Below, piece by piece: positions 23,561 through 44,671 of a stretch of DNA of 64,000 nt (the first letter of the stretch is position 1; every line of letters starts with the position of its first letter). The stretch spans positions 158,799 to 222,798 of the forward strand of contig CAVXRV010000002.1 of assembly GCA_963764275.1 (NCBI GenBank), written 5' to 3'. Under the pieces are notes generated by a model, which saw only the letters and a list, made by a program, of their open reading frames with translations, was not told the DNA's origin and made no database searches. Source of the stretch: an uncultured Solirubrobacterales bacterium. Lineage in GTDB: Bacteria; Actinomycetota; Thermoleophilia; Solirubrobacterales; 70-9. A program made the translations under genes and the position numbers.

Positions 23561-25441
23561 CTACCACGCGCCGCCGCCTCCGCCGCCGGAGAAGCCGCCA
23601 CCGCCGCCGGAGAAGCCGCCACCGCCGCTGCTCGAGCTCGACTCCGGCGCGACCTGGCTGGAGAAGCCGGAGGAGAACGAGTTGAAGCTCGCGTTCCAGG
23701 CGCCGCCGTAGAGGGCGAAGGCGGTCCAGCTGCCGGTGTTCGTCGCCTCCTGACCGACCGGCGCCGGGATCCGGCCCGACTTCGCGACCTTCTCGGCGGT
23801 GCCGAACGCCACCGCGTAGACGAGGATCTGCCGCCACAGCTTCAGGGTCGCCGGTGGATCGTCGTCGAGGCGGGGGAAGTCGTCCGTCCAGCGCCGGAAC
23901 GAGGCCCAGCGGGCGCCGCGCTCGCGGTCGTCGGCGCTGAGCCGCTTGTAGACGGTCCCCGGCAGCAGGAAGATGAACAGCATCCCGGCACCGTCGCGGC
24001 GGCGGGGATCGCGGGCCAGTCGGTGCGGGCGAAGTAGAGGAGACCGAGCAGCGACGTAGCCGGCGAGCGCGATCAGCGCGATCAGCAGGCGCCAGTCTGG
24101 TGAGGTCGCGGTCCCAGCCGATCTTGCCCTCGTCGGCCTGATCGAGCTCGTTCCGGAGGCCCTGCCAGCGGGTGCGCCAGGTCGACGAGTGCTCGGGGAT
24201 CTCGTCCTTGAGCTTGCCGAGGGCGACCGTCTTGCCGCCGAGCAGGTCGTCGAAGAACTTCATCGCGGTCTGCTCGTAGTCCTCGAGCGCCGCCGGTCGT
24301 CAGGCCGGTCCGCCGGCACCGACAGCTCCAGGTCGAGGTCGTCGTCCTGGGTCGCGCTTGGCCTCGTAGAAGCCGCGGTCGACGAGGCTGAGCAGCGTCG
24401 CGAGCACGACCCGGTCGTCGTACTCGCCCTCGGTCGCTAGGGCGTAGGCGAGCGCCGGCGGCACGTCCTCGGGCGGCTCGGTCAGGTACCGGGGGACGGA
24501 GGTCGGGCGCTCGCGGGCGGGAGCGCCAGGAGCAGCGAGAGCCCGACGACGAGCAGCGGTCCAGAGCCCGAAGATCGCCAGCGTGGTCGAAGACCACGTT
24601 CTGCCCGTTCGTCCAGGCGCTCGTGTCGTCGAGACCTCTGCTCCTGCGCGTCGACCTTGTCGGCGCCGTTGCCGCTTGCCGGCCCGCGCGCCGCGGCGAG
24701 CTGCGCATCGCGCGCGGGGCACCAGCGCCCGGAAGACGACGTTCGTGTCCCTCCTCCACCCGCCGGGCGGAGAAGGACGCTTGCCCGCCGTCGATCTCGG
24801 GGTCGGCGCCGAGCGCGCGGGTCCCGTCGTCGCAGTGCTGATTGCGCAGAAGGCTCGAGACCCAGGCCTCGGTCGGGTCGGTTCCGTCGGGCGTCGTGAT
24901 CTGGCGCCGAGAGGTCGTCGAGCCAGAACTTCCACTGATCGCCCCAGACCGTCCAGCCGACGTCGAGCACGTCGGCGTAGGCGGTGACCGCGTCCGTGAC
25001 GTCGTAGCTGAGCCGGTAGGTGGTCGCCGCATCGGTCGGCGCGTAGTGCCAGACGATGCGCTCGAACTGCGGATGCTGCTCGACCCCGAAGGAGTCCGGG
25101 CCGGTCGGAGGACCCGAGTGCGGTGTTGCCGCCCGGGCTGTAGTCCCGGCCGCCCTGCGAGACCGGGACGTCGGCTGATCCGCGCCCCCTCGTTGAGCGG
25201 GATGTCGCGGTAAGCGCCGGTGAACGTGCCGCCGTGGTAGACGAAGTCGAGGCTCTCGGTGACCCGCAGGCTCGAGTCGGGCTGCAGCTCCACGCGGGTG
25301 TTCGCCTCGGTGATGTCGAAGTCCTTGTTCGTGCCCTCGCTCGGGATCCACAGCGTGGGGAGGACCAGCGAGCACGCCGAGCACGATGGCGACGACCGCC
25401 AGCCGCCAGAGGACCTTCCAGATCAACGAGCCGATGCTCAC
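23561..25441 (-). pseudogene. DUF2207 domain membrane protein (LemA partner), several frame changes as written
   Basis: GTG 25441 forms a GTGA junction with the apparent LemA stop. The N-terminal TM is followed by LRVTESLDFVYHGGTFTGAYRDIPL (DUF2207-like). The C-terminal piece (ORF 23561..23983) ends in the typical Gly-rich tail GGGGFSGGGGGFSGGGGGGAW. Confidence 0.7.
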
Positions 25442-26017
25442 GTCGCGGCCGCCGGCGGCGCCGATGCAGACCGTCGGTGCGATCTGGGAGCCGGCGCCGG
25501 CCTCGAAGAACTCACGTCGCTGGAAGCGGAAACCATCGGCGACCAGGTTCGAGGGGAAGACCTGGATCTTCGTGTTGTAGGTCTGGACCGTGTCGTTGTA
25601 GACGCGGCGCGTGATCGAGATCTTCTCCTCGACGGAGGAGAGCTCGGTCTGCAGGCGCTGGAAGTTCTCCGTCGCCCGCAGCTGCGGGTAGTCCTCGGCG
25701 ACCGCGAGCATGCGGCCGATGCCGCCGCCGAATCGCGCCTCGGCGGTGCCGCGCTCGGCGGGGCCGGCCTCGTCGGCGCCGACCGCCTCGGTCCGCAGCT
25801 CGGTCACCTGGCTCAGGGTCTCGCGCTCGTGCTCGGCGTAGCCGCTCACGGCCGAGACCAGCTTCGGGATCAGATCGTGGCGCAGCTTCAGCGCCACGTC
25901 GATCTGCGACCACGAGTTCTCGCAGGCCAGCCGGAGCGCCACGAGCCGGTTGTAGGTGAGCCAGACGAAGGCGCCGGCGGCGACGATCAGGACGACGATG
26001 ACGATGAGGACGATCAC
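25438..26017 (-). CDS. lemA: LemA family protein (3' end off by one indel)
   Basis: GTG 26017, an N-terminal TM (IVLIVIVVLIVAAGAFVWL) and the motifs YNRLVALR, WSQIDVALKLRHDLIPKLV, ISITRRVYNDTVQTYN. As written there is no in-frame stop and the ORF runs on to 24482. A TGA at 25438-25440 in the +1 frame overlaps the GTG of the next gene. Confidence 0.85.
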
Positions 26018-26158
26018 GGTTGCGGAGCGGTCTCTTACCGGAAGCGATCCGCCGGTGTGAGCCTATCGTGCGTGAGGGCGCCCACACAGCGCGGCGAGCT
26101 GCCCAAAGACGCGTCCTTTTCGGGTAGGTTCCCAACGTCTCAACCCGAGGAGTGCGCA

Positions 26159-26545
26159 TTGGATTCCAGTCAGCTCAAGAGGTTCTCGCTGTTCGAGGGT
26201 GTCCCCGAGGAAAGCCTCGCGAAGATCGCCCCGTTCACGCAGCTCGTCGAGTTCCCCGAGGGCAAGGTGATCATCCAGGAGGGCGGGTTCGCAAACGACT
26301 TCTTCTGCATCGACGAGGGGACGGTCAAGGTCGAAAGGGCGGGCGAGGAGCTCGCCACGCTCGGGCCGGGCGACGTCTTCGGCGAGCAGGGCCTGCTCGA
26401 GAAGCAGGAGCGCTCTGCCTCGGTGATCGCGACCTCGGTCGTGCGCGCCCTGAAGATCGAGCACTGGGAGCTCTCGCGCATGCGCAAGGCGATGCCCGAG
26501 GTCGTCGACAAGCTCGTCAAGACGGTCGAGGAGCGCACGAGCTGA
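26159..26545 (+). CDS. cyclic-nucleotide-binding (cNMP/CAP effector) single-domain protein
   Basis: TTG 26159 lies 7 nt after CGAGGAG. FSLFEGVPEESL, FPEGKVIIQEGGFANDFFCIDEGTVKV, GPGDVFGEQGLL and RSASVIA are typical of the cNMP-binding fold. Confidence 0.8.
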   Translation: MDSSQLKRFSLFEGVPEESLAKIAPFTQLVEFPEGKVIIQEGGFANDFFCIDEGTVKVERAGEELATLGPGDVFGEQGLLEKQERSASVIATSVVRALKIEHWELSRMRKAMPEVVDKLVKTVEERTS

Positions 26546-26595
26546 GTCGTCCTCCGGTGCGGCCCGCGGCGGCCGCGATCTGAACTAGACTGGCC

Positions 26596-26780
26596 GCGTC
26601 CATAACGGTCGGTGTTCAGGGAAGTCCGGTGTGAAGCCGGCGCGGTCCCGCCACTGTGACCGGGTGAGTTCGCTGCACGCGTAGCCGCCTCCGCCGTGAG
26701 AGCGGCCGCAGCCACTGGGAGCCCGACGGGCCCCGGGAAGGCGCGGCGGAAATACCCGTAAGCCAGGAGACCCGGCGTCG
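26596..26780 (+). promoter_or_regulatory. cobalamin (B12) riboswitch
   Basis: The conserved core reads AGGGAAGTCCGGTGTGAAGCCGGCGCGGTCCCGCCACTGT (26618-26657). It is followed by GCCACTGGGAG...CCGGGAAGGC and the B12 box AGCCAGGAGACCCGGC (26761-26776). It ends about 35 nt before ATG 26815, whose GGAAAGGG Shine-Dalgarno follows. Confidence 0.85.
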
Positions 26781-26814
26781 GCCCAGCTGAAAACCCTCGA
26801 GGAAAGGGTGGCTC

Positions 26815-27810
26815 ATGTCCACACACTCCCCGCGGCTGCGCCGGCTTCTGCCGTGCCTCGCAGCAGCGCTCCTGACGATGATGGCCGCGGCGTCGGCCGA
26901 GGCCTCCGAACACCGCGTCGGCGCCGACCTTCGCGTCGTCGACTCGCACGGCAAGACCCTCGTCGACCAGCGGCAATACACCGGCACGGCCCGGATCAAG
27001 ACCTCCCGCAAGGCGGACTGCTTCGGGCAGGGCACCGGCGGCTCCGGTGCCAGGGTCAAGGTGCCGGGGCCGACCGCGCTCGGCATCGTCGCCGATGCCT
27101 CCACCTACCAGCGGAAGCTGCGCCCCCTGCGGATCACCGATTCGTTCGACTTCGGGCTCGGCGTCTGCGGCTTCGGCCACGCCGTCGCGCCGTCGACGGG
27201 CTACTGGTACCTGAAGCAGAACCACGTCGGCTCGCAGACGGGCGGCGATCAGACGAAGGTGCATCGCGGCGATCAGATCCTCTGGTACCTGATCACCGAC
27301 TACAACGACCCCACGCCCGACGAGCTCGAGATCCGCGCGCCCGCGAAGGTCAAGCGCGGGCAGCGGATCCCCGTCAAGGTGACCGCCTACGACGACAGCG
27401 GCAAGCGGACCCCGGCTGCCGGCGCGAAGATCGCCGGCACGAACATCGTCACCGGCGCCGACGGCAAGGCCAGCGTGCCGATCCGGGGCGCCGAGACGCG
27501 CCTGCACGCCGTCCGTGACGGGGCCATTCCCTCGCCCGTCGTCAAGGTCTGCGAGAAGGGGGTCGGCGGAAGGTGCCCGAAGGGTCACGAGCTCAAGGTC
27601 CGGGGAACGGACGGCCGCGACCACATCCGCAGCAGCAAGCGACCGACCGTGATCGACGCCTTCCGCGGTCGCGACGTGATCAACGTCAAGCCCTCGCGGA
27701 GCTCGGCGCCCCCGATCGTCAAGTGCGGCCCGGGCAAGGACGTCGTCAAGGCCCGGCGCCACCAGAAGGTCGTCGCCCGCCGCAGCTGCGAGCGGATCAA
27801 GCGGCACTGA
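26815..27810 (+). CDS. secreted DUF4430-domain protein with Ig-like middle and basic Cys-containing C-terminal region
   Basis: Signal peptide LLPCLAAALLTMMAAASAEA. DUF4430-like segment GYWYLKQNHVGSQTGGDQTKVHRGDQILWYL. First ORF after the riboswitch. Confidence 0.7.
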   Translation: MSTHSPRLRRLLPCLAAALLTMMAAASAEASEHRVGADLRVVDSHGKTLVDQRQYTGTARIKTSRKADCFGQGTGGSGARVKVPGPTALGIVADASTYQRKLRPLRITDSFDFGLGVCGFGHAVAPSTGYWYLKQNHVGSQTGGDQTKVHRGDQILWYLITDYNDPTPDELEIRAPAKVKRGQRIPVKVTAYDDSGKRTPAAGAKIAGTNIVTGADGKASVPIRGAETRLHAVRDGAIPSPVVKVCEKGVGGRCPKGHELKVRGTDGRDHIRSSKRPTVIDAFRGRDVINVKPSRSSAPPIVKCGPGKDVVKARRHQKVVARRSCERIKRH

Positions 27811-27811
27811 C

Positions 27812-28213
27812 GTGACCGGCGCCCGCACACTCGCGGTCGCGGCGGCGGGCATGCTCGCCGCCGTGATCGCGGGTTGCGGGTTCGGCGCCGGGCCCAGCAG
27901 CGAGGGGACGGCGACCCTGCGCGTGACGCGCGACTTCGGCGACAAGCTTCTGGCCGAGGCCACCGACACCGACCCGCCCGCCTCCGAGACCGTGGCCCGG
28001 TTCCTCGACCGCGAGGCTGACATCAAGACGAGCTACGGCGGCAACTTCATCGACTCGATCGACGGGGTCGCGGGCAACGCGATCGTCTCCGGCCGCAGCT
28101 ACGACTGGTTCTTCTACGTGAACGGCTACTGGTCGCCGATCGGCGCCGGAGAGGCCCAAGTCCATCCCGGCGATGCGATCTGGTGGGACTACCGCGACTG
28201 GAGCAGCGCCTAG
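27812..28213 (+). CDS. DUF4430 lipoprotein (transcobalamin beta-domain-like fold)
   Basis: GTG 27812 is 1 nt after the upstream TGA. The lipobox is AAVIAGC. The canonical DUF4430 ending is DWFFYVNGYWSPIGAGEAQVHPGDAIWWDY. It terminates at an in-frame TAG (28211-28213). Confidence 0.8.
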   Translation: MTGARTLAVAAAGMLAAVIAGCGFGAGPSSEGTATLRVTRDFGDKLLAEATDTDPPASETVARFLDREADIKTSYGGNFIDSIDGVAGNAIVSGRSYDWFFYVNGYWSPIGAGEAQVHPGDAIWWDYRDWSSA

Positions 28214-28216
28214 CGC

Positions 28217-28798
28217 GTGCCGGCGGTGGTCGGCTCCTGGCCGGAGCCGTTCCGCAGCGGCTACGACGGCAAGCGCCGCCCGACCGAGCTCACCTGCATG
28301 AGCGGTCGCGACGACGCCTGCGCGGAAACGGAGAAAGCCCTGCGTGACGCGGGGGCCGATCTCTCGGTCGCCAAGGGCACGGTCCCGCGGGCCGATCCCG
28401 GCTCGGAGCTGCGCGTGCTGGTCGGCAGCTGGGCCGATGTCCGCTCCGATCGCACCGCGCGCGAGCTCGAGCAGGGGCCGGGGACGAGCGGCGTCTACGC
28501 CAAGCCGCGCGAATGCGACGGAGGCTGGGGGCTGGAGCTGCTCGGCGCCGACGGCGGCACCGAGGGCGAGGCCGCAGTCGCGGGTTGGGTTGCCGCGACG
28601 CAGCGCGGCGACGAGCAGCCCACATGGGTGGTCTCCGGCACGGACGCCGCCGAGGCGGCGGATGCGGCCGCGCTGCTCGGCGGGGACGGGCTGCGCGACC
28701 ACTACGCGGTGGCGACGGCCGCGGGCGCGGCGACCCCGCTGCCGGCCCAGGGACCCGTCGCGGGCGCATCCGCGGGATCCTGCGGGGGGAACGGATGA
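28217..28798 (+). CDS. hypothetical protein, same frame as the preceding DUF4430 ORF
   Basis: GTG 28217 is only one codon after TAG 28211-28213 and in the same frame. The 193-aa product has no recognisable family. Its stop overlaps the next start (ATGA 28795). Confidence 0.45.
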   Translation: MPAVVGSWPEPFRSGYDGKRRPTELTCMSGRDDACAETEKALRDAGADLSVAKGTVPRADPGSELRVLVGSWADVRSDRTARELEQGPGTSGVYAKPRECDGGWGLELLGADGGTEGEAAVAGWVAATQRGDEQPTWVVSGTDAAEAADAAALLGGDGLRDHYAVATAAGAATPLPAQGPVAGASAGSCGGNG

Positions 28799-29709
28799 GG
28801 GCGGCGCTCGCATACTCGCCGCGACCGGGACCGCTCGGCCGCGCCCGCCCGCTCGTCGCCGCCGTCTACCTGATGCCGCTGGCGGCGATCGCGTTCAGCT
28901 TCTCGAGCCCGCTCGTGCTGCTCGCCGCCGGTGCCGCGGCGCTGCTTGCAGCCGCCGCCTCGGGTGCCCTCCGGCCGGCGCTGGCGCCGCTCCGCTACGG
29001 GGTCGTGTTGGCCGCGACGGTCATCGCCGTCAACGCGCTGGTCACCGACCGCGGCGAGACGATCCTCTTCCGCGGTGGGCAGGTGCCGCTGCTCGGCCGC
29101 GTGGACGTCACGCTCGAGGCGCTCGCCGAGGGCGGGATCCTCGCCCTGAGGATCCTGGTCGCGCTCGCGATCTTCGCGGTCTGGTCGGCCTGCGTGGACC
29201 CCGATCGGATCCTGAAGGCGGTGCGCCCGTTCGCCGCCCGCTCGGCGATCACCGCGACGCTGATCTCGCGCCTGGTGCCGCTCGCGGCGGCGGACTCGAT
29301 GCGCCTGCAGGAGGCCGCCTCGCTGCGCGGGCCCGCGGCCGCGCCGGTCTCGCGCGGAGCCCTGGCGCGCCGGCTCGTCGCCGGCTCGCTCGACCGCTCG
29401 GTCGACGTCGCGGCGACGCTCGAGCTGCGCGGCTTCGGGCTGCCCGGCCGCCCGGCACGGGTCCGCTACCGACGCGTTCCGGGCGAGCTGACGATGGCGT
29501 TGGTCGGGGCCGCAACGGCCGCGGCGGCGATCGCGGCGGGGGGCGCGGGCGTGGGCGCGATCGACGTCTACCCGACGATCTCCGGCGGCCTCGAGCCGGG
29601 CACGGTGGCCTTCGCGGCCGCGCTGCCGCTGCTCGCGGCGCTGCCGTTCTGCTCGCGGCGCGAGCTGCGCCGGCTGCGGGCGGAGCGCGAGCGGGGGAGG
29701 GCGCGATGA
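28795..29709 (+). CDS. ecfT: energy-coupling factor transporter transmembrane (T) component, CbiQ/EcfT family
   Basis: ATG 28795 lies within track ORF 28513..29709. It is a multi-TM protein with the C-terminal coupling-helix region ARRLVAGSLDRSVDVAATLELRGF, typical of EcfT. Confidence 0.85.
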   Translation: MRAALAYSPRPGPLGRARPLVAAVYLMPLAAIAFSFSSPLVLLAAGAAALLAAAASGALRPALAPLRYGVVLAATVIAVNALVTDRGETILFRGGQVPLLGRVDVTLEALAEGGILALRILVALAIFAVWSACVDPDRILKAVRPFAARSAITATLISRLVPLAAADSMRLQEAASLRGPAAAPVSRGALARRLVAGSLDRSVDVAATLELRGFGLPGRPARVRYRRVPGELTMALVGAATAAAAIAAGGAGVGAIDVYPTISGGLEPGTVAFAAALPLLAALPFCSRRELRRLRAERERGRAR

Positions 29710-31340
29710 GGCCCCCGGTGCTGAGCTGCCGCGGGCTCGCCTACCGCTATCCGGGCGCCGCGGCGACCGCGCTCGGGCCGCTCGATTTGGAGCTGCCCGA
29801 GGGCGAGTTCGTCGTCCTCGCCGGTCGCTCGGGCTCGGGCAAGTCGACGCTGCTGCGCGCCGCCTGCGGGCTCGTGCCCCACTTCCACGGCGGCCGCTTC
29901 GAGGGCGAGGTCATCGTCGACGGCCGCAGCACCCGCGATGCGGGCCCCGCCGAGCTCGCCGTGAACGTCGGCTTCGTCGCGCAGGAGCCGGAGTCGCAGG
30001 TGGTGTCGACGACGGTCCGGGCCGAGCTCGAGCTGCCGCTCGAGCTGCGTGGCCGCGGGCCGGACGAGACCGCCCGGGCGGTCGAGGAGGTGGCGCTCGC
30101 GCTCGGCGTCGAGGGGCTGCTCGACCGCACCACGGACACGCTCTCCGGCGGCGAGCTGCAGCGGGTCGCGATCGGCGCCGCGCTCGTCACCCGGCCGCCG
30201 TTGCTGCTGCTCGACGAGCCGACATCGCAGCTCGACCCCGTCGCGGGCGATGAGCTGATCGGTCTGCTGCGGCGCCTCAACGAGGAGTGGGGGGTGACGA
30301 TCGTGCTCGGCGAGCACCGGCTCGAGCGCTGCCTGCCGGCGGCCGACCGGGTGATCGCGCTCGAGCGCGGCCTGATCGCCTACGACGGCGAACGAGCCGG
30401 CTTCGGAGCCTTCGCCACCGGCTCTGCGCCCTGGCTGGCAACGCCCGGGATGCAGCTGTTCGAGCTCGCCGGTCTCGCCGAGCGGCCGACCTCGGTCAAG
30501 CAGGCGCGGGCGTTGCTCGCGGGGCGTGAGGGGTCGGCCACGGCCGACCGTCCCCGGGGCGGCGGAGGCCGGCGGCACCCCCACGGAGGCCCCCGCGGCG
30601 CTGCTCACGCGCGATCTGCGCGTCGAGCTCGACGCGGGGACCGGGCCGCGCGAGGTCCTCGCCGGCGTCGAGATGCGCCTCGGGGCGGGAGAGGTCGTGG
30701 CCCTCGTCGGGCCCAACGGCGCCGGCAAGAGCACGTTGCTGCGTACCGCCGCGGGGCTGCTCGAGCCCGCGGGCGGCACGATCGAGGTGCCGCGCGGGTG
30801 CGCTCTCGTCGGCCAGCGTCCCGACGATTACTTCGTTCGCGAGCGGATCGACGAGGAGCTGCCCGGGCCCGAGGGTGCCCTGGCCCTCGCAGCCGTCGGC
30901 CTCGACGTGGCCCGGGAGCGAGACCCGCGGGACCTCTCCGGCGGCGAGCGCCAGCGGCTCGCCCTCGCGATCGCGATGGCCGGTCGCGGCGCCGGCGGGG
31001 AGCCACCCGGCCTCGTCTGCTTCGACGAGCCGACGCGGGGTCTGGATCGGGAGCGCAAGGCGAAGCTCGTCGCGTGGCTGCAGGGGCTGGCCGCGGCCGG
31101 CGCCGCGGTGCTCGTCGCCACGCACGACGTCGAGTTCGCCGCCGCGTTGAGCGAACGGGTGGTGCTGCTCGGCCGCGGCCGGGTGCTCGCCGACGGGCCC
31201 ACGGGGCGGATGCTCGCCGGGGGCTGGTACTTCGCGACCGAGGTGGCCCGGATCACCGGCGGGCGGGCGATCACGCCCGCTCGGGAGCCGCCCTCTTCGC
31301 CGGGCGCGAGCCGGCAGCAGAGGCCGGAGGCCGGCGATGA
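29706..31340 (+). CDS. ecfA: ECF transporter ATPase, two tandem ABC domains (EcfA/EcfA'), frame changes near 30530 and 31270
   Basis: Domain 1 (frame of ATG 29706) has GRSGSGKST, LSGGELQR and LLLLDEPTSQLD. Domain 2 (frame of ORF 30526..33273) has GPNGAGKST, LSGGERQR and VCFDEPTRGLD. A GTGA at 30526-30529 could alternatively separate two genes. The terminal TGA 31338-31340 overlaps the next ATG. Confidence 0.85.
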   Translation: MRPPVLSCRGLAYRYPGAAATALGPLDLELPEGEFVVLAGRSGSGKSTLLRAACGLVPHFHGGRFEGEVIVDGRSTRDAGPAELAVNVGFVAQEPESQVVSTTVRAELELPLELRGRGPDETARAVEEVALALGVEGLLDRTTDTLSGGELQRVAIGAALVTRPPLLLLDEPTSQLDPVAGDELIGLLRRLNEEWGVTIVLGEHRLERCLPAADRVIALERGLIAYDGERAGFGAFATGSAPWLATPGMQLFELAGLAERPTSVKQARALLAGREGSATADRPRGGGGRRHPHGGPRGAAHARSARRARRGDRAARGPRRRRDAPRGGRGRGPRRAQRRRQEHVAAYRRGAARARGRHDRGAARVRSRRPASRRLLRSRADRRGAARARGCPGPRSRRPRRGPGARPAGPLRRRAPAARPRDRDGRSRRRRGATRPRLLRRADAGSGSGAQGEARRVAAGAGRGRRRGARRHARRRVRRRVERTGGAARPRPGARRRAHGADARRGLVLRDRGGPDHRRAGDHARSGAALFAGREPAAEAGGRR

Positions 31341-33370
31341 GCTGGCAGCTCTCGATCTTCGCCTGCCTCGCGCTGGTTCTGCTCGCGGGCGGCGTCTGGT
31401 TCGAGCGCTCCCGTCCCTCGGCCCGGGTCGTCGCCGCCGTGGCCGCGCTGGCCGCGCTCGGCGTCGCCGGCCGGCTCGTGCTGGCCCCGATCCCGAACGT
31501 CGTCGCGACCACCGACGTGGTCCTCATCGCCGGCTACGCCCTCGGCGGTCCGCCCGGCTTCGCGGTCGGGGCGCTCTCGGCGCTGATCTCGAACTTCTGG
31601 CTCGGCCAGGGGCCGTGGACGCCGTGGCAGATGGCCGGCTGGGGGCTGGTCGGGATCGGGGGCGCCCTGCTCGCGTCTGTGAGCGGCCGGCGGCTCGGGC
31701 GGATGGGCCTGGCCGTCGCCGCCGCGATCGCGGGGCTTGCCTACGGCGCCCTGCTCGACCTCTCGACGATGGTCAGCTTCGGTGGCGAGCAGTCGCTGGA
31801 GCGGTATCTGGCGCTCTCGGCGCGCGGGATCCCGTTCAACGTCGCCCACGCGGTCGGCAACGCCGCGATCATGCTCGCCGCCGGCCCGGCGCTGGTCCGG
31901 ATCGTCGACCGCTACCGCGAGCGCTTCGACGTGGAGTGGGTGCCGCTCGCCGGCGGCACGGACGCCGCTCCCGCGCGTCCCGCCGCCGGCGGCGGGCTGG
32001 CGGTCGCGTTGATCGCGCTCGGCCTGGCGTTGCCCCTGTTCGGAGGCGCCCTCGGCGCCGGCCGCGCCGCGGCGGCGGACGCCGAGGCCTCGGCGAGCGG
32101 CGCCGCCGCCTGGCTGCGCTCGGCCCAGGGCTCGGACGGCGGTTGGGGCACCGGACCGGGCTACAGCACGAACCCGGGCATGACGGGCTGGGCGATGCTC
32201 GGGCTCGAGGCGGCCGGCGTCAACCCGCGCGACGTCTCCAGCGGCGGCAAGAACCCGGTCGACTTCCTGCGCGCGAACGCCGGCAAGCTGCGCTCCACCG
32301 GCGATCTCGAGCGCACGATCCTGGCCCTGCACGGAGCCGGAGTGAGGGCCGACCGCTTCGCCGGCCACGACCTGCCGGCGCAGTTGCGGAAGCGGCAGTC
32401 CCACAACGGCTCCTACGAGAAGCAGGTCAACCTCACCGCCTTCGCGATCCTCGCCCGCGTCGCTGCAGGGGAGAGTCACGGCGCGCTCGAGCGTCCGGCT
32501 CGCTGGCTCCGCGACGTGCAGCGCTCCGACGGCGGCTGGGCCTCGACCGCGGGCGGCGCGAGCGAGCCCGACAGCACGGGCGCGGCGCTGCAGGCGCTCG
32601 CCCTGCTCGGCGCCGATGGGCCCGTCGCCGACGGCGTCCACTGGCTGCGGCGGAGCCAGAACCGGGACGGCGGCTGGGCGCTGGTCAAAGGGTCGGGCTC
32701 GAACGCGCAGTCGACCGCGTGGGCGGTCCAGGGGCTGATCGCCGCCGGGGTCGATCCCGATCGAGTCGCGACCCACGGACACAGCGGGCTCGACTACCTG
32801 CGGGCGCGCAAGCGCGGCGACGGCCACTACGCCTACTCGAAGAGCAGCGACCAGACCCCCGTCTGGGTAACCGCGCAGGCGCTTACGGCGATCGCCCGCA
32901 AGCCGTTCCCGATCGCCGCGGTCCCGCGCAAGCGGGGCGGTGGCGGGAACCACGGGGGCGGCGGCGGCGGTGGCCACGGAAGTGGCTCGGGCGGGTCCGG
33001 CTCGGGGTCGGGCTCGAGCGGGAGCGGAACGAGCGCCTCCGGACCGAGCTCGAGCGCGAACGCCAGCCCTGCCTCCAGCGGCACGGGCGGCGGCGGGGGC
33101 AACGGAAAGCAATCCTCGCGGGCCTCGCACCGCGCCCACGGTGGGTCGCACCCGGACCGCGCCACCGGCGCGAGCAAGCGCAGGGCGAACGCCGTCAAGG
33201 CGAAGCCGGGCGCGCTCGCGGCCTACGTCCCGGCTGCGGCGCCGGACGGCGCCGGGGGCAGCGCGGGCGGTGACTCCCTGCCCGCGACCGCCGTCTGGCT
33301 CGCGGGGCTCGGCGTGCTTGCCGGGCTGCTCGCGGGCGGCTTCCTTCTGTATCGACGCCGGCTCCCTTGA
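31337..33370 (+). CDS. fusion protein: ECF S-component-like 6-TM domain + extracytoplasmic prenyltransferase/squalene-cyclase-like alpha/alpha-toroid + Gly/Ser-rich linker + C-terminal anchor
   Basis: Intact 677-aa ORF. The N-terminal ~195 aa are polytopic (GPWTPWQMAGWGLVGIG). The middle carries repeated toroid motifs QGSDGGWG, QRSDGGWA, QNRDGGWA, KRGDGHY. This is followed by GGGNHGGGGGGGHGSGSGGSGSGSGSSGSG and the tail LPATAVWLAGLGVLAGLLAGGFLLYRRRLP. Confidence 0.75.
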   Translation: MSWQLSIFACLALVLLAGGVWFERSRPSARVVAAVAALAALGVAGRLVLAPIPNVVATTDVVLIAGYALGGPPGFAVGALSALISNFWLGQGPWTPWQMAGWGLVGIGGALLASVSGRRLGRMGLAVAAAIAGLAYGALLDLSTMVSFGGEQSLERYLALSARGIPFNVAHAVGNAAIMLAAGPALVRIVDRYRERFDVEWVPLAGGTDAAPARPAAGGGLAVALIALGLALPLFGGALGAGRAAAADAEASASGAAAWLRSAQGSDGGWGTGPGYSTNPGMTGWAMLGLEAAGVNPRDVSSGGKNPVDFLRANAGKLRSTGDLERTILALHGAGVRADRFAGHDLPAQLRKRQSHNGSYEKQVNLTAFAILARVAAGESHGALERPARWLRDVQRSDGGWASTAGGASEPDSTGAALQALALLGADGPVADGVHWLRRSQNRDGGWALVKGSGSNAQSTAWAVQGLIAAGVDPDRVATHGHSGLDYLRARKRGDGHYAYSKSSDQTPVWVTAQALTAIARKPFPIAAVPRKRGGGGNHGGGGGGGHGSGSGGSGSGSGSSGSGTSASGPSSSANASPASSGTGGGGGNGKQSSRASHRAHGGSHPDRATGASKRRANAVKAKPGALAAYVPAAAPDGAGGSAGGDSLPATAVWLAGLGVLAGLLAGGFLLYRRRLP

Positions 33371-33407: not shown

Positions 33408-33920
33408 ATGGACGTCGAGGAAGCGATCCGCACCCGCCGCACGCACAAGGCATACCGGCCCGAGCCCGTGCCGGCCGAGACCGTCGCCGAGCTGCTCGAG
33501 CTGGCCCGGTGGGCGCCGAACCATCACCTGACCAACCCGTGGCGCTTCCGGGTCGTCGGGCCCGCCGCGCTCGCGCGACTGAAGGAGGCGGCGGGGCCGG
33601 AGGCGGCACCGAAGCTCGACCGCGCGCCGACGCTCATCGCCGCCTCCGCGCTCGCCGACCCCGATGATCCCGTCGCCGCGACCGAGGATCTGCACGCCTC
33701 CGCCTGCGCCGTCTACGCGGTCCTGCTCGCCGCCCACGGGCGCGGTCTCGCCGCTTACTGGCGCACCCCGGGGGTGCTTCGGGAAGCGGCCGGCCGCGAG
33801 GCGCTCGGCATCGGCGCGGGGGAGACGGTGCTCGGGCTGATCTATCTCGGCGAGCCGGTGCAGGAGCAGCGCCGGCCCGAGCGCGCGGATCCATCGGACT
33901 ACGTGACGTGGCTCGACTGA
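33408..33920 (+). CDS. nitroreductase family protein
   Basis: ATG 33408 lies within track ORF 32940..33920. The 170-aa product has RRTHKAYRPEPVP, LELARWAPNHHLTNPWRF and GLAAYWRT, typical of the nitroreductase fold. Confidence 0.8.
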   Translation: MDVEEAIRTRRTHKAYRPEPVPAETVAELLELARWAPNHHLTNPWRFRVVGPAALARLKEAAGPEAAPKLDRAPTLIAASALADPDDPVAATEDLHASACAVYAVLLAAHGRGLAAYWRTPGVLREAAGREALGIGAGETVLGLIYLGEPVQEQRRPERADPSDYVTWLD

Positions 33921-33968: not shown

Positions 33969-35666
33969 ATGATCGAGCGCGCCCGTGCCCTCGACGAGCT
34001 GACCGCGGAGCCCTTCGACGTCGTCGTCGTCGGCGGCGGCGTGACCGGGGCCGGCGTCGCCCTCGACGCCGCCTCCCGCGGCTACTCGACCGCGATCGTC
34101 GAGCGCAACGACTGGGCCTTCGGCACCTCGAGCCGGAGCTCGAAGATGGTCCACGGCGGGCTCCGCTACCTGCAGAACTTCGATCTCGGGCTGGTGCGCG
34201 AGGCGCTGCTCGAGCGCCAGTTGATGGTCCACCTCGCCCCGCATCTCGTCTACCCGACGCCCTATCTGGTGCCGACGCTCGGCGACGACCGCCGCGACGT
34301 CAAGATCGGGATCGGGCTCAACATGTACGACGTGATGGCGACGACGCGCGTCGGGCAGGGGCGCCGGCAGCGCCCGCGGGGGGAGGCGGAGGGCGAGGGG
34401 GATGCCGCCTGGTCGCCCGACCGCCACCGCACGATCTCGGCCGAGGAGACGCTCGACTACGTGCCGGCGCTGGAGTCGCGCGAGCCGAAGGGCGCCTACC
34501 TCTTCTACGACTGCCAGACCGACGACGTGCGCCTGGTGCTGACGATCCTCGGCGAGGCCGAGCGCTTCGGGGCGGTGATGGCGAATCGGGTCGAGGTCTC
34601 CTCGCTGCTCGAGGACGGCGGCAGGGCGCGCGGGGTCGTCGCCGTCGACCGCGAGGGCGGCGGGCGACTCGAGATCCGGGCCGAGAACGTGATCAACGCG
34701 ACCGGCGTGTGGGCTGACCGCATCAAGCCGGGCGAGATCCTCGACGAGACCGAGGTGCCGCGCATCGCCCCCAGCCGGGGCACCCACATCACCCTGCCGC
34801 TCGAGCGGCTGCCGCTGAACCACGCGGCCTGCATCGTCCCCGCCGGCGCCGGCCGCACGATCTTCGTCCTTCCCTGGTACGGCCGCGCCCTGGTCGGGAC
34901 GACCGACAACGACTACGACGGCGACATCGACGAGGTCCGCCCGGGCAGCGACGACATCGACTACCTGCTCGACGCCGTCAACGGCTACTTCGGGGTCGAG
35001 TTCGACCGCGACGACCTCACCGGCGCCTACGCGGGCGTGCGACCGCTGATCTCGACCGGCGACCCGAAGAAGTCGGTCGACATCTCGCGCAAGGCCGAGC
35101 TGTACGAGACCTCGTCGGGGATGCTGACGATCACCGGCGGCAAGCTGACGACCTGGCGGCGGATGGCGAAGCAGATCGTCGACCGGATCGCCGAGCGCGA
35201 GGGGCGGGACCTGCCCTGCCGCACGGCCGACATCCCGCTCGGGATGGAGGCCTCGCCGGAGGATCTGACGCCGCCGGCACCGCTCGAGCCCGGCCAGCTC
35301 CCGGACGAGGCGGCCGCGCAGCTCGGCTTCCGCTACGGGCATCAGGCGCGCGCCGTGCTCGCGCTCGCCGCCGAGCGCCCGGAGCTGGCGCGCCCGATCG
35401 TTCCCGGGCACCCCGACCTGCTCGCCGAGGTCGTGCTCGCGGCGCGCTCCGAGCAGGCGCGAACGGTCGGCGACGTCCTGCTGCGGCGCACGCGGCTGGG
35501 GCTCGTCGCCGCGCCGCAGCTGCGCACCGCCGACTCGGTGAGGGCCGTCGCCGAGACGCTCGGCGCCGAGCTCGGCTGGGACCGGCGGCGGATCGGCGAC
35601 GAGGCCGAGGCGTGGGTGAGCGAGCTCGCGACCGAGGGCTGCGACCCGGCCGGTGCGGCGGCCTGA
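33969..35666 (+). CDS. glpD: FAD-dependent glycerol-3-phosphate dehydrogenase
   Basis: Intact 565-aa ORF with the dinucleotide fold DVVVVGGGVTGAGVALDAASRG. SSRSSKMVHGGLRYL, PSRGTHI, GGKLTTWR and the C-terminal helical domain are also present. Confidence 0.9.
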   Translation: MIERARALDELTAEPFDVVVVGGGVTGAGVALDAASRGYSTAIVERNDWAFGTSSRSSKMVHGGLRYLQNFDLGLVREALLERQLMVHLAPHLVYPTPYLVPTLGDDRRDVKIGIGLNMYDVMATTRVGQGRRQRPRGEAEGEGDAAWSPDRHRTISAEETLDYVPALESREPKGAYLFYDCQTDDVRLVLTILGEAERFGAVMANRVEVSSLLEDGGRARGVVAVDREGGGRLEIRAENVINATGVWADRIKPGEILDETEVPRIAPSRGTHITLPLERLPLNHAACIVPAGAGRTIFVLPWYGRALVGTTDNDYDGDIDEVRPGSDDIDYLLDAVNGYFGVEFDRDDLTGAYAGVRPLISTGDPKKSVDISRKAELYETSSGMLTITGGKLTTWRRMAKQIVDRIAEREGRDLPCRTADIPLGMEASPEDLTPPAPLEPGQLPDEAAAQLGFRYGHQARAVLALAAERPELARPIVPGHPDLLAEVVLAARSEQARTVGDVLLRRTRLGLVAAPQLRTADSVRAVAETLGAELGWDRRRIGDEAEAWVSELATEGCDPAGAAA

Positions 35667-35701
35667 GCGAGGCGTCGGGACGCTCTCTATCCTGCCGCGG
35701 G

Positions 35702-36994
35702 ATGCCGACTTCACTAAAGAGCAAGCACCTCGCCGACCTCCACGAGCTCGCGCGGGAGCGGGGAATCGATCGCTACCGGATGCTGAGCCGCGACGAGCTG
35801 ATCGACGCGCTCGGGGATTCCGACGATTCCGCCGACGACGGCCCCGTGGCCGAGCGCGACGAATCCGCGTCGGGTAAGAGCTCTCGCCGCCGGCGCGGCG
35901 GCAGGGGCCGCGATCGCTCCCGTCGCGACGACGACAAGGGCTCCGACGACGAGAGGGGCTCCGACGAGGACGAGCAGGAGGAGGAGGGCGCGCCGGTCAC
36001 CGGCGTGCTCGAGATCACCTCGCGCGGCCACGGCTTCGTCCGTCGCGAGGAGGACCCGGACGACGAGGGGGACGTCTACGTCTCGCCCTCGCAGATCCGC
36101 CGCTGCGAGCTCAACGACGGGGACCTGATCAGCGGACCGGCCCGCAAGCCGCGCCGTGGTGAGCGCCATCCGGCCCTGATCCACATCGATACGGTCAACG
36201 GTGCCGAGCCGGGTGCGCCGCGCTCGCGTTTCGAGGAGCTCGAGGCCAGGCACCCGCACCGCCGGCTCGAGCTCAGCGGCGAGGGGCTCGAGGGCAACGA
36301 GCGGACCCTGATCCGCTCCCTCGACCTGCTCGTGCCGCTCGCCCGCGGCCAGCGCGTGCTCGTCGAGGCCGCCCGCGGTTCCGGCCGGACGACGCTGCTG
36401 CGCGCCCTCGCCCGCGAGCTGAGCGGCAAGGAGGGGCTCGGCGTCGTCGTCGTGCTGATCGACGAGCGGCCCGAGGAGGCGCCGGCCTGGCGCGAGGCGC
36501 TGCCGGATGCCGAGCTGGCGATCGCGACCGCCGACATGCGGCCCAAGGAGCAGCTGCGGCTCGTCGAGCTCGCGATTGCGCAGGCGAAGCGCCGCGTCGA
36601 GGCCGGGGAGGACGTGGTCGTCCTGATCGACTCGCTCTCCCGCCTCGCGGTCGCCGCCGACGATCCCGGGGCCGTGAAGCCGATCTTCGCCGCCGGCCGT
36701 GAGACCGCCTCAGAAGAGGCGGGGTCGCTGACCGTGATCGCGACCGTGCTGACTGACGGCGGCGAGGGCGTCGCCGAGGCCCTGCGCACGACCGAGAACG
36801 TCACCGTGGCCCTCAGCGGCGAGCTCGCGGAGGCCGGCATCTACCCGGCCCTCGACGCGACCGTCGCGCGCGTCGTCGGCGAGGAGGAGCTGCGCGAGGA
36901 CCCGGAGCTCGAGGCCGCGCGCGAGCTGCGCGCCCAGCTCGCCCGGCTCGACGCCCGCGAAGCGGCGGAGCGCCTCGCCGCCGAGGCGAAGTAG
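35702..36994 (+). CDS. rho: transcription termination factor Rho homologue with divergent ATPase motifs
   Basis: ATG 35702. The Rho_N helix-hairpin is LKSKHLADLHELARERGIDRYRMLSRDELIDAL, followed by an acidic/basic insertion. The OB RNA-binding domain is GVLEITSRGHGFVRR...VYVSPSQIRRCEL. LIDERPEE and Walker B VVVLIDSLSRLA are present. Walker A reads AARGSGRTT (Arg codon CGG at 36386-36388 where Lys is expected). Confidence 0.8.
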   Translation: MPTSLKSKHLADLHELARERGIDRYRMLSRDELIDALGDSDDSADDGPVAERDESASGKSSRRRRGGRGRDRSRRDDDKGSDDERGSDEDEQEEEGAPVTGVLEITSRGHGFVRREEDPDDEGDVYVSPSQIRRCELNDGDLISGPARKPRRGERHPALIHIDTVNGAEPGAPRSRFEELEARHPHRRLELSGEGLEGNERTLIRSLDLLVPLARGQRVLVEAARGSGRTTLLRALARELSGKEGLGVVVVLIDERPEEAPAWREALPDAELAIATADMRPKEQLRLVELAIAQAKRRVEAGEDVVVLIDSLSRLAVAADDPGAVKPIFAAGRETASEEAGSLTVIATVLTDGGEGVAEALRTTENVTVALSGELAEAGIYPALDATVARVVGEEELREDPELEAARELRAQLARLDAREAAERLAAEAK

Positions 36995-42708: not shown

Positions 42709-43409
42709 TGGCCGCCGGCGAACGCCCCCGGCGCTCGCCCGTCCGCGTGCGCCGTCGCGCCGTCGCTCTGGGGCTGTTGGCGCTCGCGTGCGCCGGGCTC
42801 TCCGCCGGGGCAGCTGCCCGGGGCGGCGACGGCGGGGAGCGGTTCGGAGCGCTGCGCACGGTCGTCGTCGCCGAGCGTGGGCTCGCGCGCGGGAGCCGGA
42901 TCGAGGCAGGTAGCGCACGCCGCACTCTGACCACGCGCCGAATCCCGTCGGCCTTCGCGCCCCCGGACGTCCTCGCGGGCCCCGAGGCGGCGATCGGATC
43001 GCGGGTGGCCGTGCGCATCCCGGCCGGCTCGTATCTGACGGCGTCCCTGCTCCGGCGCCGGGCTCCCCATGCCACGGGTCCGGCGCACCGGCTGCCCGCG
43101 GGCCTGCGCCCGGTCGAGGTCGAGGTCAGCGCGCCGCCGGGGTCGCCGGCGGCCGCGGGCTCCGCCCCCGGTTCGCGCGTCGACGTCCTTGCGGCCGACG
43201 AGCCCGGTTCGACGACCAATCCCCGCGTCCACGTCCTCGCCCGCGACGTGCGGCTGCTCGCGCTCGAGCCCAACCGCGGCGGTTCCGGTGCCGACGGCAG
43301 CAGCGGCGCCGGCGGCTGGCTGGCGACGCTCGCCCTCGACCACAGTCAGGCGCTGGCGGTGATCGAGGCCGACAACTACGCGCGCGAGGTCAGGTTGCTC
43401 GCCCGATGA
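42708..43409 (+). CDS. cpaB: Flp pilus assembly protein CpaB-like (SAF domain)
   Basis: The ATG overlaps the kinase stop (TGATG). An N-terminal TM is followed by the SAF-like VVVAERGLARGSRI and the RIPAGSYL pattern seen in CpaB/RcpC proteins. Confidence 0.7.
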   Translation: MAAGERPRRSPVRVRRRAVALGLLALACAGLSAGAAARGGDGGERFGALRTVVVAERGLARGSRIEAGSARRTLTTRRIPSAFAPPDVLAGPEAAIGSRVAVRIPAGSYLTASLLRRRAPHATGPAHRLPAGLRPVEVEVSAPPGSPAAAGSAPGSRVDVLAADEPGSTTNPRVHVLARDVRLLALEPNRGGSGADGSSGAGGWLATLALDHSQALAVIEADNYAREVRLLAR

Positions 43410-44671
43410 GCGACCGGCGCGCCGCCGACCCACGCCGGCTGCTCGACGAGCGGCTGCAGGCACTCGCGGACGAGCTGCGCGGGCGCCTGATCGATCGCCA
43501 TCGCGCGGCGGCGATCGCGGCCGGGGGAGGGGACGCTCCCGCGGTCGCCGAGCAGCTCGAAGCGCTGCTCGGCGAGGAGACGCCGCTGCTGTCGGAGCCG
43601 AGCCGGGCGCGGTTGCGCGCGCAGCTGCTTCGCGAGACGGTCGGTCTCGGCCCGCTCGAGGAGCTGCTCGCGGATCCCGAGGTCGAGGAGGTGCTCGTCA
43701 ACGGCCACCGCGAGGTCTGGGTCGAGCGCGGCGGGCGGCTCGAGCGCCTGCCGTCGGCCTTCGACAGTGAGGCGCAGCTCCACGACGTCGTCGAGCGCGT
43801 GCTCGGTCCGCTCGGAAGGCGGGTCGACGAGCTCAGCCCGATCGCCGACGGTCGCCTCGCCGACGGCTCGCGCGTGAACGTGATCATCCCGCCGCTGGCG
43901 GTGGACGGCGTCACGATCTCGATCCGCCGGTTCGCCGGGCTGCGCCCGGGACCGCAGGAGCTGATCGAGCGCGGCTCGGTCCCGGCAGAGCTCATGGAGC
44001 TGCTGAGGGCGGACGTCGAGGCGCGCCGCAGCATCCTGATCAGCGGCGGCACCGGATCCGGGAAGACGACCCTGCTCAACGCCCTCTCGGCGTTCATCGA
44101 CCCCGGCGAGCGGGTGATCACGATCGAGGACGCGGCCGAGCTGCGACTGGTGCAGCCGCACGTCGTCCGCCTCGAGAGCCGGCCGCCGGGGCTCGACGGG
44201 CGGGGTGCGGTCACGATCCGCGACCTGGTCCGCAACGCGCTGCGCATGCGTCCCGACCGGCTCATCATCGGCGAGGTCCGGGGCCCCGAGGCGATGGACC
44301 TCGTCGTGGCGCTCAACACCGGTCACGCGGGCGCGCTCTCCACCGTGCACGCCAACGGTCCGGCCGAGGCGCTGCGCCGGGTCGAGATGCTGGCGCTGAT
44401 GTCTGATTTGCGGATCGCCCCGGAGGTGCTGCGCGAGCAGCTCACCGGCGCGCTCGACCGCGTCGTGCACGTCAGCCGCCTGCCGGGGGGCTGTCGGGCG
44501 GCGGTCTCCTACGCGGAGATCCGCGGCACGGGCGCGGGCGTGGAGCTGCAGGAGCGCTGGGCCCGGACGGCGCCGGCCCGTCGGGGACGGGGGCTGACGT
44601 GGGGATCGGCCTGCCGACGCTCGTCGCCGGCGCGGGGGGCGCCGCGCTCGCGCTCGCCGCCGCCGAGCTGA
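43406..44671 (+). CDS. cpaF: CpaF/TadA-family secretion ATPase (3' end uncertain)
   Basis: ATGA overlap with cpaB. Motifs: VNVIIPPLAVDGVTISIRRF, Walker A GGTGSGKTT, ITIEDAAEL, IIGEVRGPEA, NTGHAGALSTVHAN. A TGA at 44595-44597, one frame off and 1 nt before the GTG of tadB, suggests the true stop is there. Confidence 0.9.
   Translation: MSDRRAADPRRLLDERLQALADELRGRLIDRHRAAAIAAGGGDAPAVAEQLEALLGEETPLLSEPSRARLRAQLLRETVGLGPLEELLADPEVEEVLVNGHREVWVERGGRLERLPSAFDSEAQLHDVVERVLGPLGRRVDELSPIADGRLADGSRVNVIIPPLAVDGVTISIRRFAGLRPGPQELIERGSVPAELMELLRADVEARRSILISGGTGSGKTTLLNALSAFIDPGERVITIEDAAELRLVQPHVVRLESRPPGLDGRGAVTIRDLVRNALRMRPDRLIIGEVRGPEAMDLVVALNTGHAGALSTVHANGPAEALRRVEMLALMSDLRIAPEVLREQLTGALDRVVHVSRLPGGCRAAVSYAEIRGTGAGVELQERWARTAPARRGRGLTWGSACRRSSPARGAPRSRSPPPS

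Follow-up and report, generated by a model that had tools for sequence, protein, structure and literature searches.

The stretch analysed here, called the window throughout, comprises 64,000 nucleotides from an uncultured Solirubrobacterales bacterium (assembly GCA_963764275.1, contig CAVXRV010000002.1, positions 158,799 to 222,798 of the forward strand) and contains, downstream of a cobalamin riboswitch, an operon for a transporter of the energy-coupling factor (ECF) type. A preliminary description, made from the sequence alone, had recognised the riboswitch and listed six open reading frames behind it, whose numbering (ORF1 to ORF6) we retain. Our analysis shows that the operon consists of five genes. 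In order, these encode a variable secreted DUF4430 protein, a lipoprotein composed of a DUF4430 domain and a flavodoxin-like domain, the coupling subunit EcfT, a fused EcfAA' ATPase, and an S-component fused to an alpha/alpha toroid (Table 1).

The riboswitch and the five-gene operon

The presence of a cobalamin riboswitch upstream of the operon was confirmed by a covariance search, in which the full RF00174 model (positions 1-189) matched well above its gathering score of 31.5 bits (E = 8.7e-14); this is the sole Rfam match within the window. The conserved motifs stand where they had been described, and the gap to the ATG at 26815, given earlier as about 35 nucleotides, measures 22 nucleotides from the 3' end of the aptamer. 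Within these 22 nucleotides lies the Shine-Dalgarno sequence GAGGAAAGG. Neither a sigma-70-like promoter nor a terminator was found around the riboswitch; because the gene of a cyclic-nucleotide-binding domain protein (26102-26545, +) stops 32 nucleotides upstream of it, the promoter probably lies inside or upstream of that gene. A hairpin at 33323-33342 was disregarded, its position being inside ORF6.

The junctions seen in the sequence are, as described, TGAcGTG (27808-27814) behind ORF1 and ATGA overlaps at 28795, 29706 and 31337. The genes for the S, T and A subunits, joined by such overlaps in a single operon, correspond to the dedicated (group I) type of ECF system. The number of genes, by contrast with the preliminary description, had to be revised. 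ORF2 and ORF3, formerly taken for separate genes coupled at TAGcgcGTG, are one gene: in 69 of 71 related loci, a single reading frame runs through both parts, and a stop codon occurs at none of the 71 printed junctions. The TAG of the window aligns with tyrosine (TAC/TAT) in the closest relatives (L001, L002, L003, L005 and L042), with TAC in L080, a syntenic relative that is 64% identical, and with methionine or other residues in distant relatives. Nearly every database homologue of ORF3 is the C-terminal half of a protein of 305-330 amino acids whose N-terminal half is PF14478; the protein of 193 residues that had been listed as unknown hence survives as the C-terminal half of the lipoprotein and not as the product of its own gene.

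A similar revision applies to the ATPase. Two ATP-binding cassette (ABC) domains had been placed in one frame, and only the first of them lies there, up to approximately 30518-30547. The second is encoded in frame +1, from about 30547 to 31284, and the last 18 or so codons with the stop, which overlaps the ATG at 31337, are again in frame 0. Both domains share a single frame in 66 of 74 related loci. The operon of the window thus carries three lesions in two genes, namely one TAG nonsense codon and two frameshifts that compensate each other.

Table 1. Positions of the riboswitch, the genes and the parts of ORF6 within the window
Feature	Coordinates	Strand	Basis
Cobalamin riboswitch aptamer	26577..26793	+	RF00174, 62.2 bits
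ORF1, secreted accessory protein, 331 amino acids	26815..27810	+	DUF4430 in 8/13 family members
Lipoprotein gene (formerly ORF2, 27812-28213, and ORF3, 28217-28798), TAG at 28211-28213	27812..28798	+	homologue frames, PF14478
ORF4, EcfT, transmembrane coupling subunit, two ...RG coupling-helix motifs	28795..29709	+	family profile against PDB
Fused EcfA-EcfA' ATPase gene, two compensating frameshifts	29706..31340	+	ABC_tran
ORF6 residues 1-198, six-helix S-component domain, CbrT/Lsa1836 lineage by sequence	31337..31930	+	6fnp_A, ECF_trnsprt
ORF6 residues 218-242, seventh transmembrane helix	31988..32062	+	hydropathy; model helix 219-235 (low confidence)
ORF6 residues 248-530, predicted extracytoplasmic (alpha/alpha)6 toroid	32078..32926	+	Pfam, model, Foldseek
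ORF6 residues 531-677, disordered linker, C-terminal anchor and tail	32927..33370	+	pLDDT, hydropathy
YdjA-like nitroreductase-family protein, 170 amino acids, possible sixth gene	33408..33920	+	NCBIfam

The ECF core, the toroid and the DUF4430 proteins

With ORF4 as a single sequence, Pfam returned no match. The profile of its family, searched against the PDB, matched EcfT chains only (5d3m_D best, E = 7.7e-7; 4hzu_T and 4huq_T), in an alignment that spans the coupling-helix ...RG motifs, bearing out the earlier identification of this protein. Both ABC domains of the ATPase (ABC_tran, E = 4.1e-26 for the first and 8.6e-19 for the second) carry Walker A, signature, Walker B and H-loop motifs, and the best NCBIfam matches are ECF_ATPase models, under their cut-offs.

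The N-terminal domain of ORF6 matches the Pfam family ECF_trnsprt in 20 of 20 members of its family, and its profile has a sole strong match in the PDB, 6fnp_A (E = 5.6e-21, 78 bits, residues 9-180 of 182). This chain is, we infer, CbrT, being the only one unique to entry 6FNP, the crystal structure of ECF-CbrT, the B12 importer of L. delbrueckii, which uses ATP to take up cobalamin and cobinamide (Santos et al., eLife 2018, PMC5997447). Judged by sequence, the S-domain is a member of the CbrT/Lsa1836 family of ECF S-components, and the earlier claim that the system is distinct from ECF-CbrT cannot be upheld. The two share an S-component homologous over its full length, a homologous EcfT and the ECF mechanism. 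They differ in that CbrT is a solitary S-component of 182 residues using a shared ECF module (group II), with no extracellular partners and no riboswitch described, whereas the system of the window has a dedicated ECF module, fused ATPases and two or three added extracytoplasmic modules.

The composition of ORF6 as an ECF S-component domain followed by an alpha/alpha toroid was borne out by Pfam, by the profile searches and by the structure model. Its family comprises 6,468 database proteins at E <= 0.001, of which the best 120 are all long fused proteins; a representative-level search with the single sequence gave 2,208 cluster representatives, among which some members of 207-244 amino acids may be standalone S-components or fragments. 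In ORF6, an Arg-rich cytoplasmic segment (DRYRERF) precedes the seventh helix, which takes the chain from the cytoplasmic end of the S-domain to the outside. The toroid is a single barrel in the model, of the prenyltransferase/squalene-cyclase repeat type, with a mean predicted local distance difference test score (pLDDT, in blocks of ten residues) of 87 for residues 251-260 and no lower than 90 throughout 261-530. Behind the toroid come a linker rich in Gly and Ser (541-649, about 110 residues), whose pLDDT is below 50, and a C-terminal transmembrane helix (650-673; 651-675 in the model) with the tail YRRRLP at its end. Hydropathy, the model and the positive-inside rule predict a position of the toroid outside the membrane, with a tether at either end. 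The C-terminus may serve simply as an anchor or may be a sorting signal; it gave a weak NCBIfam match to GVDTG_CTERM (19 bits, below the cut-off).

Foldseek comparison of the toroid ranked best the single-domain squalene-hopene cyclase (SHC)-like structures 8paj and 8pak, with drimenyl diphosphate synthase, SHC, the type II terpene cyclase MstE and prenyltransferase beta subunits among the matches, and the family profile retrieved the same enzymes from the PDB with E values down to 6.8e-29. The likeness to class II terpene cyclases extends to the repeat motifs (Q..DGGW) and to an acidic residue at the position of the catalytic DxDD motif: the toroid segment S-E-P-D412-S-T-G (D412 codon, 32570-32572) aligns with the catalytic S-D-V-D303-D-T-C of the drimenyl diphosphate synthase SsDMS. 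The toroid of the window differs from these cyclases by the degenerate state of this motif, by the lack of a second cyclase domain, by its predicted extracytoplasmic position and by its fusion to a vitamin transporter.

The DUF4430 content and the lipobox described earlier were both upheld. ORF2 scores 50.5 bits against DUF4430 (PF14478; gathering score 23.8). ORF1 by itself stays below the Pfam cut-off (18 bits, E = 0.004) and is assigned through its family, in which the best member reaches 1.8e-6. ORF1 consists of a signal peptide, the DUF4430-like domain, a middle part that by our reading of the sequence may be immunoglobulin-like, and a C-terminal extension (27600-27807) with Gly/Asp-rich repeats, noted also for the relatives L002, L003, L008, L010 and L020. 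RTX repeats (HemolysinCabind) match this extension in 2 of 13 ORF1 relatives, and shorter homologues lack it. In 48 of 69 loci, the lipoprotein gene is preceded by an ORF1 homologue, making this a variable first gene. The lipoprotein has the lipobox ...AAVIAG-C-GFG in the window, with G21, C22 and G23 invariant in 37 homologues; its DUF4430 domain is followed by a flavodoxin-like domain of about 190 residues with two invariant cysteines.

A structure model was made for a homologue, P0123, which is 57% identical to the window lipoprotein as repaired by replacing the TAG with tyrosine. The model has two domains (predicted template modelling score 0.85). By Foldseek, the N-terminal domain resembles the beta domains of intrinsic factor, transcobalamin and haptocorrin as well as 3u7z, a DUF4430 structure from R. 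gnavus; the matches are 2pmv_A, 3u7z, 5no0, 5np4, 4kki, 8ixt, 2bb6 and 2bb5, with probabilities of 0.91-1.00 and, for isolated domains, TM-scores of 0.62-0.63 on the target. As a pair, the two domains resemble the carbohydrate-binding and flavodoxin-like unit of BcsB. The predicted structure thereby shows DUF4430 to have the transcobalamin beta fold, and the identification of DUF4430 with the beta region of transcobalamin is further supported because some mammalian TC2 proteins carry PF14478 (see also PMC4350170). Sequence-profile searches of the PDB yielded nothing useful for the DUF4430 profile or for that of the ORF3 domain, the C-terminal domain being without sequence relatives of known structure. 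An hhalign comparison of DUF4430 with an alignment of TC2 proteins from the database gave no signal, the low diversity of the alignments making this a weak negative. A literature search on SCO2321 returned nothing related.

Related loci, neighbouring genes and frame breaks

Sampling of one genome per species yielded 79 loci, nearly all from metagenome-assembled genomes of Solirubrobacterales and other Thermoleophilia. The cultured Conexibacter arvalis DSM 23288 is among them, and its locus is free of the frame breaks of the window. The order lipoprotein, EcfT, EcfAA', S-toroid fusion is colinear in 72 of the 79 loci, the others being truncated. RF00174 matched on the same strand upstream of the operon in all eight loci tested with Rfam, and a profile built from those matches detected a same-strand element in 69 of the 69 loci that have upstream DNA, with E = 1.5e-19 or better; in the remaining 10, the sequence is cut off upstream. 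The expected linkage of orthologous operons to B12 riboswitches, and of these riboswitches to a dedicated ECF operon with DUF4430 and toroid modules, is thus conserved.

Beyond Thermoleophilia, the preliminary statement that no system of this architecture had been characterised does not hold, given that lsa1836-1840 of L. sakei, which has homologous parts, has been published (Verplaetse et al., bioRxiv 10.1101/864751). In that ECF-like transporter, the S-component, T and a fused AA' are accompanied by two secreted proteins, of which Lsa1839 resembles the beta domain and Lsa1840 the alpha domain of transcobalamin (10.1101/864751). The authors of that study proposed that extracellular alpha-like and beta-like capture proteins feed the ECF S-component (10.1101/864751). 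A search of plasmid records with ORF6 (tblastn) recovered what appears to be the L. curvatus counterpart, in addition to several copies on Lactobacillaceae plasmids; the relatives considered by name are L. curvatus, L. plantarum, L. kefiri and Bacillus sp. N5-665. Our profiles scored the L. curvatus and L. plantarum proteins, respectively, at 146 and 126 bits for the S components, at 90 and 70 bits for the T subunits, and at 28 and 25 bits for the DUF4430 proteins, and the toroid profile matched residues 97-318 of an L. curvatus LPXTG protein (66 bits, E = 1.5e-19) and a 350-residue protein of L. plantarum (27 bits). The S, T, DUF4430 and toroid parts of the apparent L. curvatus counterpart are thus homologous and follow the same order. 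Because the profiles of all four parts match, we regard the operon of the window as a relative of the Lsa1836-1840 system in which the toroid is fused to S. The two systems agree in their parts (toroid, DUF4430 protein, EcfT, fused EcfAA' and S-component) and in the order of these. They differ in that the toroid of the window is attached to the C-terminus of the S-component by way of an extra helix, whereas the lactobacillus toroid is separate and LPXTG-anchored or secreted, and in that the flavodoxin-like domain of the window lipoprotein gave no match in the lactobacillus operons.

A third arrangement is found in Bacillus sp. N5-665 (NZ_CP093325.1, L084:2566-4374), where an ORF of 603 amino acids combines DUF4430 (56 bits) with a toroid (SQHop_cyclase_C, 27 bits), that is, both transcobalamin-type parts in one polypeptide. 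It is followed by genes for a DUF4430 protein, EcfT and the S-component, with the AA' gene presumably between T and S. The sole riboswitch at this locus is an S-adenosylmethionine (SAM) riboswitch (9718-9816). From these alternative fusions, to S here and to DUF4430 in Bacillus, with the toroid a separate protein in Lactobacillaceae, it can be argued that the toroid acts in physical partnership with DUF4430 as well as with the S-component.

The gene context in L. plantarum provides an independent link of the transporter to cobamides. On pMF1298-5 (NZ_CP013155.2, L082/L083), a mobilizable 37-kb plasmid from fermented sausage, the transporter cluster (T, AA', S, toroid-like and DUF4430 genes) lies near nrdJ (adenosylcobalamin (AdoCbl)-dependent), a corrinoid adenosyltransferase gene and cobS. 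The plasmid also carries another S-component gene and a histidine phosphatase family gene, whose product we read as CobC-like. By its gene content, pMF1298-5 looks like a portable island for the use and salvage of B12. Its toroid-like protein is annotated as 'fucose-binding lectin II'.

Two further groups of systems invite comparison. BtuCD-F and the relay of the surface lipoproteins BtuG/BtuH in Bacteroides (PMC6143338, PMC10404256) are analogous in function, combining uptake controlled by a B12 riboswitch, high-affinity extracytoplasmic capture and handover to a membrane transporter; the folds are unrelated, and import relies on a type II ABC importer or on TonB-dependent transport in place of the ECF machinery. 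The eukaryotic B12 carriers transcobalamin, intrinsic factor and haptocorrin share with the window family the DUF4430-like beta domain. These carriers are soluble and act through receptor-mediated endocytosis, whereas the parts encoded in the window reside on different polypeptides, are membrane-tethered and belong to a primary active transporter. A review of C. difficile riboswitches (PMC11477304) contains nothing on a system of the window type.

Downstream of ORF6, a gene of the nitroreductase family starts after 37 nucleotides, and a same-strand homologue stands downstream of the S-toroid gene in 42 loci, mostly within a few hundred bases. Among NCBIfam models, NAD(P)H nitroreductase PRK10828 fits the product best, with 54.8 bits, which is under its cut-off; BluB was rejected as an identification, its score of 40 bits falling far short of the required 150. 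The nitroreductase possibly belongs to the unit as a sixth gene, for instance with a role in corrinoid processing. The neighbours examined included neither a B12-dependent enzyme nor a gene for B12 biosynthesis. The regions 33969-36994 and 43403-45435 (+) encode a DAO/DAO_C protein of the glycerol-3-phosphate dehydrogenase type, the T2SSE and T2SSF proteins of a secretion or pilus system, and Rho, whose N-terminus is extended by acidic and basic sequence.

Frame breaks are common elsewhere in the window. A threshold-based frame plot of GC content at third codon positions was too noisy, and Viterbi segmentation by codon position was used instead; it gave about 15 frame switches without a stop codon in the old frame, and two of these candidates were verified by Pfam. 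An SBP_bac_5 gene (7726-8732, +) is split near 8221, with profile positions 115-263 and 297-364 in different frames, which indicates that the assembly carries indel errors. A penicillin-binding protein gene (52860-54174, +) is split near 53647, with PBP_dimer in frame 0, Transpeptidase in frame +1 and no stop in the old frame. Upstream of the operon, the LemA/DUF2207 genes look broken: at 24082-26017 (-), a LemA domain (25450-26017) appears intact and is followed by an Arg/Pro-rich nonsense translation. In L080, LemA and DUF2207_C are likewise split into several called genes; gene calls in this assembly, which shares the contig naming, are fragmented in the same manner. Most of the relatives are MFD-named metagenome-assembled genomes with long contigs, which we take to be long-read assemblies, and we consider it most probable that the three lesions of the operon arose as consensus errors in an assembly of this type.

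Function, rival explanations and meaning

Taken together, these results make it probable that the operon encodes a dedicated (group I) ECF-type corrinoid importer with tethered capture modules, which is repressed through the cobalamin riboswitch and belongs to the family of ECF-CbrT and Lsa1836-1840. Under such a model, scarcity of corrinoid would leave the aptamer empty and the ribosome-binding site just downstream of it free, and the operon would be translated. At the external surface of the membrane, corrinoid would then be captured by the DUF4430 modules; the toroid, which the seventh helix and long flexible linkers connect to the S-component, might close over the ligand together with DUF4430 or dock the loaded lipoprotein, and would hand the ligand to the CbrT-like pocket of the S-domain. 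Toppling of the S-domain against EcfT and ATP hydrolysis by EcfAA' would complete the import, the long disordered linkers giving the S-domain the slack to topple. What is new here is the fusion of the toroid to the S-component and the control by the riboswitch; the Lsa1836-1840 parts and the concept of capture were known already.

Several observations weigh against this interpretation. The sole relative that has been studied experimentally, that of L. sakei, is assigned to heme and not to B12. A cobalamin riboswitch, which precedes the operon of the window, was found at none of the three Bacillota loci examined. Between the aptamer and the start codon of ORF1 there is no intrinsic terminator, and the local fold around the Shine-Dalgarno sequence, the putative expression platform, is not above that of shuffled sequence (z = 0.70); for these reasons, translational control by the riboswitch is something that we infer. 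The lesions could also be real, in which case this copy would be non-functional. With regard to the toroid, chains of transcobalamin, intrinsic factor or haptocorrin were absent from its top 50 Foldseek matches and from the best 60 of 93 PDB profile matches (E up to 10), Pfam Cobalamin_bind (PF01122) was detected in 1 of 18 toroid family members at E = 0.38, and hhalign of the toroid against the TC2 alignment gave E = 0.15, a weak negative given the shallow alignments. Finally, the third position of the DxDD-like motif is acidic in 196 of 196 members (191 Asp, 5 Glu).

The alpha domain of transcobalamin, intrinsic factor and haptocorrin is an alpha/alpha barrel, and the preliminary description had equated the toroid with this half of the carriers. 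That equation found no specific similarity to rest on in any of the four comparisons above, neither in sequence nor among the top-ranking structures; the resemblance is at the level of the fold class only. With some doubt, we consider the further possibility of a two-piece clamp, dependent on corrinoid, that the membrane-tethered toroid would form with the DUF4430 lipoprotein directly on the toppling S-component, the conserved aspartate being a ligand contact; this would be a split prokaryotic counterpart, and possibly the source, of the transcobalamin/intrinsic-factor design. Isolated human TC-beta binds cyanocobalamin and cobinamide, and TC-alpha and TC-beta assemble only with cobalamin (PMC5599065). 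Should a clamp of this kind exist, the whole family of the Lsa1836-1840 type, including the 'heme' system of L. sakei, would consist primarily of cobamide importers. The opposite view of the toroid, which is improbable in our estimate, takes it for an extracytoplasmic enzyme or processing module derived from a single-domain class II terpene cyclase, with the aspartate as the acid, and is compatible with corrinoid import. The best structural and profile matches are such enzymes, the motif aligns with the catalytic site of SsDMS, the full DxDD is present in 21 of 196 members, and the acid is kept in the lactobacillus toroids as well. MstE is a single-domain cyclase, and because the matching chains of MstE (6sbb), 8paj and 8pak are 340-350 residues long, the single-barrel architecture does not exclude activity. 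The conservation of the acid keeps an enzymatic role under consideration. What speaks against such a role is that the motif is degenerate in the window (ExDS, as E-P-D-S) and not intact in most members, the toroid hence being no catalytically intact cyclase by this measure; that the barrel is a single extramembrane one, fused to a vitamin S-component under a B12 riboswitch; that no isoprenoid genes were seen in the operon; and that the fusion of toroid and DUF4430 in the Bacillus relative fits a binding partnership better.

With respect to the substrate, it appears very unlikely to us that the system imports heme, the substrate proposed in L. sakei, or some other tetrapyrrole that is not a corrin. 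Deletion of lsa1836-1840 lowered heme accumulation in that organism, and complementation or overexpression raised it (10.1101/864751), and our S-domain profile scores the S component of the apparent L. curvatus counterpart above CbrT (146 against 78 bits). However, the assays in L. sakei were on heme and omitted cobalamin, which the authors left open as a substrate (10.1101/864751), and hemin does not compete with B12 in ECF-CbrT (PMC5997447). The cobalamin riboswitch before 69 of 69 related operons, the position of the L. plantarum copy among genes for AdoCbl use and the cobamide nucleotide loop, and the identity of DUF4430 as a B12-binding beta fold all point away from heme. Still more remote is the import of cobalt or nickel ions: the operon lacks CbiM and CbiN, the matches of the S-domain are to CbrT and to generic families of vitamin S-components, and the accessory DUF4430 domain is a corrinoid-binding fold, which outweighs the weak cbiO-type NCBIfam matches of the ATPase and the fact that B12 riboswitches often control cobalt ECF transporters such as C. 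difficile cbiMNQO (PMC11477304). A different kind of alternative, rather unlikely though less so than any enzymatic role of the toroid, is that the TAG and the frameshifts are real and the locus is a decaying, non-functional copy, with the C-terminal domain of the lipoprotein unexported and the second ATPase domain lost. The three lesions fall in two genes within 3.1 kb, and the TAG is a substitution, less typical of long-read error than an indel. Against decay, unrelated genes of the window, including that of the penicillin-binding protein, are frameshifted too; L080, with the same contig naming, is fragmented similarly; and in the ATPase the two shifts compensate exactly, preserve the ATGA overlap and leave both shifted segments readable as clean, conserved protein.

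What defines ECF transporters is that they lack extracytoplasmic binding proteins and that their S-component topples in the membrane. The large family to which the operon of the window belongs contradicts this simple picture, with an S-component covalently tied to an external barrel of 280 residues and with DUF4430 capture partners, and the long disordered linkers suggest how toppling stays possible. The invariant cobalamin riboswitch is the first substrate-level evidence for this transporter family and argues for a retest with B12 of its sole studied member, the one assigned to heme. Corrinoids are a limiting shared nutrient in soil, and the hosts, Solirubrobacterales and other Thermoleophilia, are soil Actinomycetota known here almost wholly from metagenome-assembled genomes; the locus of C. 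arvalis DSM 23288 allows the question to be tested directly.

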